Shown one piece after another: positions 17,326 to 34,978 of a stretch of DNA of 53,966 bases. The DNA comes from an uncultured Rhodobacterales bacterium (GTDB lineage: Bacteria; Pseudomonadota; Alphaproteobacteria; Rhodobacterales; Rhodobacteraceae): the NCBI GenBank assembly GCA_964441435.1, contig CAYTUW010000001.1, positions 1 to 53,966 of the forward strand, written 5' to 3'. The notes under the pieces were generated by a model. It was not told the origin of the DNA. It saw nothing but the letters and a program-made list of their open reading frames with translations, and did no database searches. The translations under genes and the position numbers were made by a program. Within the stretch, counting starts at the first letter, position 1. Every line of letters begins with the position of its first letter.

Positions 17326-18297
17326 CTAGTTCAGGAATTCCATACCTTTCAGTGCGTCGATCAAAACCTCCTGAAATGCTGCGGGCGCTTCGATCTGTGG
17401 AATATGACCCACGCCACTCATTCTTGTCAGCCTGGCGTTGGGAATAAGCGTCGTAAGTTCTTGCCCCTGGGCGAGTGGCGTTATCGTATCCATATCGCCC
17501 CAAATGATCGAAACAGGTAATGTTAGAGACTGATATTGCGCCTTATCCATGCTGATTGCGTCACGGGGATAGGCGAGCAGAGCAGGCAGCCAATTTGCGA
17601 TCGCTTGAGTCGTTCCCTCTCGGATCATCGGGCGGTTTAGCAGGGCCGCACGATCATCGGTTGCGGCCGCTTTGACATGGATCATCGCTGCGAGGAGCCT
17701 GCGCATCATCATTGGGTTGGTGACGGTTGCAGCTACGCCTGCCTCGCGCAGCAGGCGTGGGCGAAGCGGCACAGGAAGGGCCTTTGACGGATCAAGATGC
17801 AACCCAATCGCACCATCCACGATGACAAGGCCAGCATAAGCCGTTTGATTGCGCAACACCGCCTCTACCCCCGGTCCCGCGCCAAAAGAGTGGGCGATCA
17901 GGATCGGTTGTTCATTGAAAGTTGCAACCAGCGCATTCAGCCGCTGCGCAGAGGCCACACGCGAATAATCGCCGTCCCCCGCCCGATCTGAATAACCAAA
18001 TGGTGGCATGTCAAAGGCAACAGCGTGAAATCCGGCATTGCCCAGCGCATCCAGCGTTTCGACCCACAGGCCGGACCACGCCGCAGTGCCATGCGCCAGG
18101 AGCAGCAATGGGCCGTCCTCAGGCCCGCGTTCGATGACAAAGATCCGGCCCATTTCGGTTTCGATCAATCTGCCATCCGCAGGCAGCACCGCCGCCAGTG
18201 GCATCACTTCGCGCTGACTTGCCGAGATGCGGGCAATGATCGGCAGCGATACAATAACAATAACTATCAGAAGAATAAGGCGTTTTACCCATTTCAT
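17326..18297 (-). CDS. Alpha/beta-fold hydrolase with N-terminal membrane anchor
   Basis: LLLAHGTAAWSG, the nucleophile elbow HSFGAG and the C-terminal GHIPQIE are typical. Start at ATG 18297 (MKWVKRLILLIVIV). Confidence 0.8.
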   Translation of the reverse strand: MKWVKRLILLIVIVIVSLPIIARISASQREVMPLAAVLPADGRLIETEMGRIFVIERGPEDGPLLLLAHGTAAWSGLWVETLDALGNAGFHAVAFDMPPFGYSDRAGDGDYSRVASAQRLNALVATFNEQPILIAHSFGAGPGVEAVLRNQTAYAGLVIVDGAIGLHLDPSKALPVPLRPRLLREAGVAATVTNPMMMRRLLAAMIHVKAAATDDRAALLNRPMIREGTTQAIANWLPALLAYPRDAISMDKAQYQSLTLPVSIIWGDMDTITPLAQGQELTTLIPNARLTRMSGVGHIPQIEAPAAFQEVLIDALKGMEFLN

Positions 18298-18361
18298 ACA
18301 CATAAGATAGCCGCGCAGGAATCGGTTTGCCAAGGCGCAAAAATCTCGCCAATGTCCGCCC

Positions 18362-19600
18362 ATGCTACTTTTACGCACGAACCGGAATTATCGGCTGCTC
18401 TTTTCCGCGTCATCGGTCAGCAATCTTGGCGACGGGATATCCGCCCTGGCGTTTCCATGGCTTGCTACTCTGTTGTCGCGTGATCCTTTTGCGGTTGCGC
18501 TGGTGGCGATGGCGACTCGCTTGCCGTGGTTTCTGTTTTCTCTGCCTGTTGGGGTCTGGACCGATCGCTTTGACCGCCAGCGTCTGATGGTGCAGGCCGA
18601 TCTGTTCCGGCTGGGGCTGACCTTTGGGGTGATTGCCCTGATTTTTTCCGCCCCTTCTCTACCGGTTGAAGGGGGGCATGACCACCTGATCTGGCTGCTG
18701 GCCGGGGCAGCGTTCCTGTTGGGTGTGGCAGAGGTGTTCCGGGACAATGCCGCGCAAACCATGTTGCCATCCGTCGTAGATAAGGGCGATCTGGAATCCG
18801 CAAACGGCCAGATGTGGAGCGCCGAACAGGTGATGGGCGCCTTTGTCGGCCCGCCACTGGCGGGCGTGTTGATCGCCTATGCGGTGCCGACCCCTTTCAT
18901 GTTTGACGCGCTCTGTTTCGGGGTTTCTGCCTGGCTGTTGTGGTGTATCGCCCTGACCAAATCCGCGCCAGCACCAGCGCGGCGCAGTTTCTGGACGGAA
19001 ATGGGCGAGGGATTGCGTTGGCTCTGGCAGGCGCGGGAAATTCGCCAACTTGCCATTCTGTTGGGCATATTGAACGCCCTATATACTCTAACGCTGACGA
19101 TTCTGGTTCTTTTTGCACAAGATGTGCTTCATCTTGGTGCCTTCTGGTACGGCGTTTTGCTTACCTCTGGTGCCGTTGGCGGCGTGCTGGGTGGGCTAGT
19201 ATGTCCGCGGATCGCGGCGCGGATTGGCAATCGGTTGAGCCTGCTTTTGTCGCTTGTTCTGATTGCGATCCCGGAGCTTGCGATCTGGATGGCGCATGAT
19301 GCGTTTGTGGTGGCTCTGGCGCTCGGCACCTCAATGTTCGGTGCCATTTTGTGGAATGTCGTGACGGTGTCCTACCGTCAGCGGATGATCCCCGATGCAT
19401 TGCTCGGCCGGGTGAATTCGATCTACCGCTTCTTTGGCTGGGGTATGATGCCGCTTGGGGCGCTGGCAGGTGGCCTGGTGGTCAGCCTGGCAGAACCAGG
19501 CATAGGCCGTGAAGCTGCGCTTCGCCTGCCCTTCCTGCTGGCCGGGTTAGGTGTGCTGCTGTTGTTGTTCTATTCCACTGTCCGGCTACGGTTGAGATAA
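18362..19600 (+). CDS. MFS transporter
   Basis: 412 aa with about 12 hydrophobic segments and the loop motif GVWTDRFDRQR after TM2. Confidence 0.85.
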   Translation: MLLLRTNRNYRLLFSASSVSNLGDGISALAFPWLATLLSRDPFAVALVAMATRLPWFLFSLPVGVWTDRFDRQRLMVQADLFRLGLTFGVIALIFSAPSLPVEGGHDHLIWLLAGAAFLLGVAEVFRDNAAQTMLPSVVDKGDLESANGQMWSAEQVMGAFVGPPLAGVLIAYAVPTPFMFDALCFGVSAWLLWCIALTKSAPAPARRSFWTEMGEGLRWLWQAREIRQLAILLGILNALYTLTLTILVLFAQDVLHLGAFWYGVLLTSGAVGGVLGGLVCPRIAARIGNRLSLLLSLVLIAIPELAIWMAHDAFVVALALGTSMFGAILWNVVTVSYRQRMIPDALLGRVNSIYRFFGWGMMPLGALAGGLVVSLAEPGIGREAALRLPFLLAGLGVLLLLFYSTVRLRLR

Positions 19601-19681
19601 GGCGTTTGAAACGCCTTCAACGCGATTTCAAATCGCGTCAAAGGGCATTGAATGCCCTTAAAAGCCGCTTTCAAGCGGCTT
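19599..19681. repeat. Four tandem perfect palindromes (9-bp arms) with starts exactly 21 nt apart
   Basis: Read directly: AAGGCGTTT-g-AAACGCCTT (19599-19617), ACGCGATTT-c-AAATCGCGT (19620-19638), AAGGGCATT-g-AATGCCCTT (19641-19659), AAGCCGCTT-tc-AAGCGGCTT (19662-19681). Confidence 0.9.
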
Positions 19682-19700
19682 CTACAATGGCCACCGCAAC

Positions 19701-19728
19701 AAAAAAGACCCGGGCAAAAGCCCGGGTC
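19701..19728 (-). terminator. Rho-independent terminator of the response regulator gene
   Basis: GACCCGGGC-aaaa-GCCCGGGTC is a perfect 9-bp stem (19707-19728). On the minus strand it is followed by T6 (plus-strand A6, 19701-19706). Confidence 0.75.
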
Positions 19729-19777
19729 AGTCCAACAGGGAGGATGATGCCGTAACCCGGGCATCGGCGGGATTCTC

Positions 19778-20464
19778 TTAGCTTACCAATTTATAACCGC
19801 CGGATTCGGTCACAAGAAGGCGCGCATTTGACGGATCTGGTTCTATTTTTTGCCGAAGCCGGTAAATATGTGTCTCCAGCGTATGCGTTGTGACGCCTGC
19901 ATTGTAGCCCCAGACCTCATGCAGCAGCACATCACGCGCCACCACGCCATCCGTGGATCGGTAGAGGAATTTGAGGATATTCGTCTCTTTTTCCGTCAGG
20001 CGGATTTTCCGGTCCTCTTCATCCACCAGCATCTTCATCGCTGGTTTGAAGGTGTAGTGACCAAGCTGGAATACCGCATCCTCGGATTGTTCGTGCTGGC
20101 GCAGCTGCGCGCGGATTCGCGCCAGAAGCACCGGGAACTTGAACGGTTTGGTTACGTAATCATTGGCACCAGCATCAAGGCCAAGGATCGTATCAGCGTC
20201 TGAATCATGGCCTGTCAGCATCAGGATCGGGCATTTGACGCCCTGTTTGCGCAGCAAGCGGCACAATTCACGCCCATCGGTGTCGGGCAGACCCACATCA
20301 AGGATCACGAGGTCATAGATCGCCTGTTTGGCTTTCTCCATGGCCTCGGCGCCATCGCCTGCCTCAAACACATCAAAGTCCTCTGTGATGACAAGCTGCT
20401 CTGACAAAGCTTCACGCAGGTCATCGTCATCATCCACAAGGAGTATCTTTTTCAGGTTTGACAT
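19778..20464 (-). CDS. OmpR/PhoB-family response regulator (receiver plus winged helix); no histidine kinase adjacent
   Basis: ILLVDDDDDL...DLVILDVGLPDTDG...KPF is a receiver domain. C-terminal LTEKETNILKFL...THIYRLRQKI...GGYKL is a wHTH. ATG 20464 (MSNLKK) preferred. Confidence 0.9.
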   Translation of the reverse strand: MSNLKKILLVDDDDDLREALSEQLVITEDFDVFEAGDGAEAMEKAKQAIYDLVILDVGLPDTDGRELCRLLRKQGVKCPILMLTGHDSDADTILGLDAGANDYVTKPFKFPVLLARIRAQLRQHEQSEDAVFQLGHYTFKPAMKMLVDEEDRKIRLTEKETNILKFLYRSTDGVVARDVLLHEVWGYNAGVTTHTLETHIYRLRQKIEPDPSNARLLVTESGGYKLVS

Positions 20465-20631
20465 CCTGGTCATCCTTTTCACTGTCTGACCTAGACCTGT
20501 ATACGAAGTGGCGCTCTGACAAGATTGCCGCAGTAATTTTCACGCGGACGTGTCCAAATCGCGGAAAATGTTTCAATTTGCTTCATCTCGGCCTACATGA
20601 GGGGTCGCTGACTGTAACATGACAGGCCCCA

Positions 20632-34931: not shown

Positions 34932-34950
34932 GCCAAAACAAACCAATAAA

Positions 34951-34978
34951 AGCCGCCCCATTTGCGGGCGGCTTTTTT
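34951..34978 (+). terminator. Rho-independent terminator
   Basis: AGCCGCCC-catttgc-GGGCGGCT followed by TTTTTT. Confidence 0.8.

Follow-up and report, generated by a model that had tools for sequence, protein, structure and literature searches.

The stretch of DNA considered here (the window, 53,966 nucleotides (nt), or 54 kb) is part of contig CAYTUW010000001.1 in assembly GCA_964441435.1 of an uncultured Rhodobacterales bacterium, from a poorly sampled lineage of Rhodobacteraceae (Paracoccaceae), and it carries an array of four small palindromes at the junction of two convergent transcription units. On the plus strand, the open reading frame (ORF) list and Pfam give a gene for a transporter of the major facilitator superfamily (MFS; MFS_3/EntS-like, 412 aa, 18362..19600), with matches to MFS_3 (1.9e-33) and MFS_1 (2.3e-25). 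The alignment to its homologues reaches residues 410-412, and its stop codon, TAA, occupies 19598-19600. On the minus strand, an OmpR-type response regulator gene (19778..20482; Pfam Response_reg and Trans_reg_C) hosts the small RNA (sRNA) SorX, the 3'-UTR-derived singlet-oxygen resistance RNA X (19702..19773; Rfam RF02784; UTR, untranslated region), which begins 5 nt past the regulator stop, on the same strand and in the regulator 3' UTR. The array lies between the MFS stop at 19600 and the SorX 3' end at 19702.

The four units are perfect palindromes with arms of 9 nt each: U1, AAGGCGTTT-g-AAACGCCTT (19599..19617); U2, ACGCGATTT-c-AAATCGCGT (19620..19638); U3, AAGGGCATT-g-AATGCCCTT (19641..19659); and U4, AAGCCGCTT-tc-AAGCGGCTT (19662..19681). 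The first base of U1 is the second base of the MFS stop codon, unit starts follow in exact 21-nt steps, and the spacers are CA, CA and AA. Beyond U4 lies a non-palindromic tail of 19 nt, CTACAATGGCCACCGCAAC (19682..19700), which by comparison with three relatives (L056, L074 and L083) is the right-hand part of a lineage-specific insertion of ~100 nt. An earlier note on this DNA had described four perfect palindromes starting at 19599, 19620, 19641 and 19662, in 21-nt phase, beginning in the MFS stop codon and with different but fully compensated cores; reading the sequence and a palindrome scan bear out each of these points.

When the units are aligned arm to arm, all 36 of the 36 stem pairs are Watson-Crick and none is G-U. 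Five of the nine stem positions vary between units, with both sides changed, and no position has changed on one side alone. The invariant frame consists of A1, G3, T8 and T9 with their complements (8 of 18 arm positions), while the unit cores all differ (GGCG, CGCGA, GGGCA and GCCGC). The loop bases alternate (G, C, G and (T)C), and in-register identity between units is ~57-67% by hand count. Because the cores differ and each arm pair is complementary all the same, self-pairing, and not a sequence motif, is the property common to the four units. The pattern A[AC]SSSSWTT, offered by the earlier note as a description of the left arm, fits U1 and U3 but fails for U2, which has A at position 6, and for U4, which has C at position 7.

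The regular spacing and dyad symmetry raise the possibility of phased operator- or iteron-like sites for a dimeric protein bound on one face of the helix, for example one that blocks convergent RNA polymerases or organises the locus. Such arrays share with this one a regular spacing of dyad-symmetric units, here at exactly 21 bp or about two turns, and the invariant arm positions could be taken as a recognition frame. However, iteron and operator arrays repeat one recognition sequence, whereas a repeated half-site is absent here: the cores differ at 5 of 9 positions and are self-complementary in each unit, which duplex recognition does not require and which points to intrastrand pairing. Units that share self-pairing but no sequence speak against a dimeric protein on duplex DNA and for intrastrand hairpins. 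Further, the window holds no second match to the motif, and the array is missing in relatives that keep both flanking genes. The 21-nt period is trivially the 19-nt unit plus the 2-nt spacer, and nothing tested ties it to the two helical turns suggested previously. We regard an array of phased sites for one dimeric DNA-binding protein, also put forward in the earlier note, as very improbable. No convincing match to parS, the CtrA box (TTAA-N7-TTAA), GANTC or IHF motifs was seen by eye.

As RNA, each unit is predicted to form a stem of 8 bp with a loop of 3-4 nt, at -8.8 (U1), -8.4 (U2), -9.8 (U3) and -11.7 kcal/mol (U4), a range of -8.4 to -11.7 kcal/mol. A 196-nt region around the junction folds far better than its shuffles on both strands (z = -6.6 on plus and -6.2 on minus). 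Perfect palindromes with a stem of >=8 and a loop of <=5 number only 10 distinct cases in the whole window, and 5 of these 10 fall in the MFS/SorX junction; nowhere else in the window do two or more perfect palindromes (stem >=8) adjoin. Across 1.6 Mb made up of the window and its relatives, arrays of >=3 adjacent perfect palindromes (stem >=7) occur twice, this one included, and shuffled sequence yields none. The census, made with a vectorised palindrome scan, is unchanged when one mismatch is allowed. The clustering of palindromes at the junction is thus far beyond chance.

The other three-unit array, at L063:20271-20340 in a metagenome-assembled genome (MAG) of Paracoccaceae, is flanked by the gene for a fatty-acid desaturase and, convergent with it, one for a class I aminoacyl-tRNA synthetase. 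Its units are AATTTTTC-gacgc-GAAAAATT, CGGAAAAC-gacac-GTTTTCCG and CGGAATTT-gtgtc-AAATTCCG, and the loop of the third is the reverse complement of the loop of the second. We rejected it as a true analogue: its unit 1 pairs with its unit 3, and the whole folds into a single long, nested palindrome.

The strongest hairpin at the junction does not belong to the array. Located at 19707..19728 on the minus strand, it reads GACCCGGGC-uuuu-GCCCGGGUC followed by UUUUUU, with 9 pairs (8/9 GC) and -19.5 kcal/mol, and its T-run lies on the minus strand (GACCCGGGCTTTTGCCCGGGTC TTTTTTGTTG). The terminator scan reports it as the intrinsic terminator of SorX and the regulator mRNA. The SorX match itself scores 74.7 bits against a gathering threshold of 46.6 (E = 1.5e-16 on the whole window) and covers model positions 1-73 of 73, and the hairpin forms the 3' end of this full-length match. 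Judged by this full-model score and by its position in the regulator 3' UTR, the fifth hairpin, and it alone, is a bona fide member of the SorX family. In Rhodobacter sphaeroides, where the OmpR-type regulator is RSP_0847, cleavage releases SorX from the 3' end of the regulator mRNA (PMC9438474), and the SorX/regulator layout found here matches the published one exactly. The regulator is 88-92% identical to regulators from many Rhodobacteraceae genera; since the homologues are 228 aa long, its true start probably lies ~18 nt inside the ORF. The annotation of the locus is corrected accordingly: the strong hairpin belongs to SorX, while the four palindromes lie beyond the SorX 3' end and are not part of it.

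This bears on the place of termination at the locus. In a terminator scan of 19300-20000, the sole terminator-like site is on the minus strand, namely the SorX hairpin; the four units all fail to qualify, the plus strand past the MFS gene has no canonical terminator, and no sigma-70-like promoter is found in the same interval. The conventional terminator that the earlier note placed after the units is therefore the SorX 3' hairpin, on the opposite strand. The note had argued from it that the four units call for more than termination, an argument that fails once the MFS gene is seen to lack a canonical terminator. The units do resemble intrinsic, bidirectional or tandem terminators in having a GC-rich stem with A's 5' and T's 3', directly after a stop codon at a convergent junction. 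They differ in that their T-runs are 1-4 nt, that beside the real terminators of the window they have short stems of low stability (-8 to -12 kcal/mol) and that four stand in a row. The RNA tails after the units read UUC, UC, UUAAAA and UUCU on the plus strand, and UUUU (3' of U4), UUUG, UUG and UUAUCU on the minus strand; with 1-4 U per tail, no unit passes the scan. Canonical hairpins with T-runs do serve as terminators elsewhere in the window (e.g. 34976-34948, 50865-50838 and 48910-48885), which sets the array units apart as hairpins of another kind, not canonical terminators. One of these, at 34948-34976 on the minus strand, is a canonical, bidirectional-looking terminator, AAAAGCCGCCC-gcaaatg-GGGCGGCTTTT, whose outer arms (AAAAGCCGC and GCGGCTT) equal U4 plus flank (ttAAAAGCCGC...GCGGCTT), probably a coincidence between GC-rich terminator stems.

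The minus-strand tails are slightly more U-rich than the plus-strand ones, which would suit a role of the units as back-up terminators for the regulator-SorX transcript, catching escaped polymerases before they enter the MFS gene in antisense. Such a role seems improbable to us. No unit meets the T-run criterion of the scan, little read-through is to be expected past a terminator as strong as that of SorX (9 pairs, U6, -19.5 kcal/mol), and the relatives manage without the units.

What is old and what is new at this junction can be read from relatives. The best genome matches to the MFS protein are 62-67% identical (Halocynthiibacter, Thalassobius and Octadecabacter), and a search of 5.8 billion proteins returned one relative at 98% and, as the next, one at 68% (Cochlodiniinecator); between 98% and 68% identity no MFS homologue was found among the genome contigs or in this search. 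The convergent layout, with the MFS gene facing the SorX-regulator unit, is kept in 16 relatives from many genera, including Jannaschia, Roseicyclus, Nioella, Alterinioella, Gymnodinialimonas and Cochlodiniinecator, and none of them has the array. The distance from the MFS stop in these 16 relatives is -5 to 50 nt to the SorX 3' end and 26-81 nt to the SorX core (CAACAGGGAGG, plus strand), as against 133 nt to the core in the window (stop-to-core loci: L030, L049, L050, L054, L056, L057, L060, L065, L066, L068, L069, L074, L075, L080 and L083). The array hence adds a separation that was not there ancestrally. In L056, L074 and L083, nothing separates the TAA from the A-run and hairpin of a SorX terminator nearly identical to that of the window, the junction reading TAA-AAAAAGACCC; in L049, L050 and L068, the last part of the MFS coding sequence contains the A-run of the SorX terminator. 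Judging from these junctions, the MFS and SorX transcripts of the relatives must overlap or share one bidirectional terminator. The convergent MFS/SorX layout with a shared or overlapping terminator is conserved across many Rhodobacteraceae genera.

Because the relatives keep this layout without the array, 19601-19700 (the four units and the 19-nt tail) is by subtraction a lineage-specific insertion, into a junction where two transcripts ancestrally shared or overlapped one terminator. Among the regulator-SorX loci examined that adjoin other genes, no hairpin array was found. At the same locus, an alpha/beta-hydrolase gene (17326-18378, minus strand) stands between the Exo_endo_phos and MFS genes and is missing there in Cochlodiniinecator (L083) and in L084; it is a second lineage-specific change.

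Smaller hairpin groups do occur in relatives. Two-hairpin clusters stand at convergent junctions in L006, L017, L019, L057 and L073, as two facing terminators would give. In two of them the first hairpin begins in a stop codon or no more than 2 nt away from one: in Jannaschia pagri (L057:5172-5220), it begins in the TAA stop (TAAGACATTTC...), and in a Pelagimonas MAG (L073:6860-6904), a single nt lies between the end of the two-hairpin array and a minus-strand stop. The fusion of hairpins to TAA stops may be a recurrent habit in Rhodobacteraceae.

An identical array is present in two short Logan contigs, L001 (SRR24874947) and L082 (SRR15635846), which represent near-identical metagenomic strains. 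Over 2251 nt, 26 differences separate the window from L082, the strain of 98% identity, and 19582-19933 is free of them. The 26 differences are strongly clustered within the MFS gene (6 in 16 nt at 18967-18982, 9 in 40 nt at 19483-19522 and 4 in 28 nt at 19554-19581), and these clusters look like short recombination or multi-nucleotide mutation tracts, not independent point mutations. Conservation in close relatives had been named beforehand as a test of interest, and here the expectation is disappointed: the array is not kept in the nearest relatives, at 55-68% MFS identity. The pattern is striking and statistically real, and it is conserved only in near-identical strains; as it stands, the array is a single-lineage curiosity.

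We tentatively read the four units as stacked RNA stem-loops in the 3' UTR of the MFS mRNA that would serve as a spacer and barrier between the convergent transcripts, an interpretation to which we give somewhat less than an even chance. In this lineage only, the array was inserted into the junction of the MFS gene and the SorX/OmpR-regulator unit, and its transcript would make up the first ~83 nt of the MFS 3' UTR. After the ribosome leaves the UAA, the units would fold one by one into their short stems, and the stack may form a structural barrier that halts 3'->5' exonucleases short of the MFS coding region. Further, the array could act as a spacer of ~100 nt and a roadblock that moves the MFS 3' end away from the SorX terminator. 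Since perfect palindromes form the same hairpins on both strands, the barrier would work both ways and could also meet read-through from SorX. That the array is transcribed throughout, that its hairpins form in vivo and that they influence RNA stability or termination in any way are inferences. Hairpins of the repetitive extragenic palindromic (REP) elements and bacterial interspersed mosaic elements (BIMEs) of E. coli, located at 3' ends, stabilise the upstream mRNA, and for REPs near a stop codon, interference with the termination of translation has been reported. Should the array indeed be a barrier, it would show a bacterium building a multi-hairpin insulator from scratch, at one locus, between an mRNA and a convergent regulatory sRNA, and it would offer a clean natural case of hairpins that evolve under structure-only constraint or under template-switch homogenisation.

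Several observations weigh against a barrier and spacer of RNA hairpins. The array is missing from all relatives, with MFS identity up to 68%, and is therefore dispensable for the locus, and the other response regulator-SorX loci examined also do without such arrays. Its identity in two strains carries no weight, as zero changes were found in the 100-nt insert where ~1-2 would be expected. The unit hairpins are weak beside the SorX terminator. In addition, the 36 pairs hold no G-U pair or mismatch at all, unlike the prediction for selection on one RNA strand alone; this lack would be in keeping with a process at the DNA level, with an element of very recent origin or with constraint on both strands.

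A DNA-level process would need no function. A short terminator-like hairpin may have been tandemly duplicated at the gene junction and its arms homogenised by repeated intra-strand template switching, one arm serving as template for the other; the units would then drift apart in sequence without losing their perfect symmetry, and the array would be a neutral by-product of replication errors. Template switching has been documented to create hairpins and to make them perfect (PMC8794818; PMC5941160; PMC8604942). Inverted repeats of this origin resemble the units in their perfect arms, in multi-base compensated differences and in loops that seem inverted (PMC8794818; PMC5941160); template switching is a mutational mechanism and not a functional class. 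Complete Watson-Crick pairing without G-U intermediates or one-sided changes is the signature of arm homogenisation, not of stepwise compensation. The units share frame and length (A1, G3, TT/AA by the loop, 19-20 nt and 2-nt spacers), and their loop bases alternate as spacer inversion would make them do. The absence of the array from all other genera, with no homologue anywhere searched, fits as well. However, Tandem Repeats Finder (TRF) at a minimum score of 30 detects no repeat in 19599-19681, and an identity between units of only ~57-67% does not describe a tandem repeat or satellite. Four events with exact 2-nt spacers are much to ask of chance, and comparable arrays are nearly absent from the 1.6 Mb of relatives, so that the process cannot be common. 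We consider a neutral origin doubtful in itself, but nearly as likely as the RNA barrier and a serious rival to it.

The behaviour of an unrelated repeat is relevant here. A scan of metagenome contigs for the phased frame ANGSSNNTTNAANNSSCNT occurring twice gave matches that, among those listed, are dominated by a homogeneous 21-nt satellite unrelated to the array, which makes the scan uninformative for heterogeneous arrays; in viral contigs the same doubled frame gave two matches, both non-palindromic. The satellite is palindromic as well (unit AAGGCCCTT-[T/A]-AAGGGCCTT-AT), abundant, and forms arrays of >20 units, as at L123:620-860, L111:720-1650, L151 and L090:2670-2794 and in at least ~110 other metagenome contigs (sets Ga0115006, Ga0209713, Ga0136655, PJEL01 and SXGQ01). 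Its contigs have ~48-50% GC, a modest coding density and long ORFs without Pfam matches. The variant units of this satellite are mostly uncompensated, which shows that the perfecting of palindromes is not automatic and speaks against a purely neutral origin of the array.

The two ideas can also be combined. A hairpin might have multiplied in place, its arms been kept perfect by template switching, and the product been retained as a bidirectional RNA insulator: a locally born element under constraint on structure only, with units that share shape and geometry (9+1+9+2 = 21 nt) and not sequence. It would shield SorX from convergent antisense transcription from the MFS gene, and the MFS mRNA from SorX-directed duplex cleavage. 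We see this combination as a long shot.

The same array invites comparison with dispersed repeats, as a REP/BIME-like or other small palindromic repeat family of the source genome, spread by a REP-associated tyrosine transposase (RAYT) or a similar enzyme. Its location is that of a typical REP cluster, extragenic, at a gene 3' end and between convergent genes; the hairpin palindromes stand head to tail, and a role at the RNA level, as a block to 3' exonucleases, would likewise be shared. The alternating loop bases would suit units set in alternating orientation, the units have a common AAG...CTT frame, and similar single units stand at other junctions (AAGCCGCTTCGAAGCGGCTT in Ruegeria L019/L026 and AAGGCCGTTTCAAACGGCCTT in L073). 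However, REPs, which occur in E. coli, Pseudomonas and other bacteria, are a dispersed multi-copy family of ~35-nt imperfect palindromes with a conserved head and a link to RAYTs, whereas these units are perfect 19-20-mers that differ from each other and have no GTAG-type head. No second copy of any unit within 4 mismatches exists in the window, the 54 kb by which the source genome is sampled, and near copies (2 mismatches) in the 1.6 Mb of relatives are confined to U4, namely AAGCCGCTTCGAAGCGGCTT at one orthologous site in two Ruegeria loci. The window also lacks any other palindrome pair or array with a stem of >=8. Rfam at E <= 10 reports no family for the four units, blastn of the array against plasmids gives only matches with E >= 1, and no transposase or RAYT domain was found among the 45 window ORFs scanned with Pfam. 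The REP/BIME-like family put forward in the earlier note accordingly gains no support, and we hold it to be unlikely. A MITE-like insertion (miniature inverted-repeat transposable element) was rejected as well: with insert boundaries deduced from L056, L074 and L083, the left end GGCGTTTG and the right end CCACCGCAAC show no inverted repetition, and any target-site duplication amounts at most to a trivial AA.

Going by present data, the array belongs to one locus and one lineage. The known systems closest to it in function are BIME-type clusters and sets of non-canonical terminator hairpins; the array is an extragenic 3'-end hairpin cluster, and differs from these in that its units are unrelated by sequence, perfect, equally sized and confined to one locus.

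The wider context is that of a chromosome. The 45 window ORFs scanned are ordinary chromosomal genes, including those for LeuRS, LptE, LpxK, KdtA, MutY and DciA, together with a CcrM-like methylase, RNase HII and polysaccharide genes. The CcrM-type N6-adenine methylase gene (48963-50075, minus strand; N6_N4_Mtase and RAMA domains) stands in an ordinary chromosomal context, as does a tRNA gene (53889-53962, minus strand) at the very end of the window.

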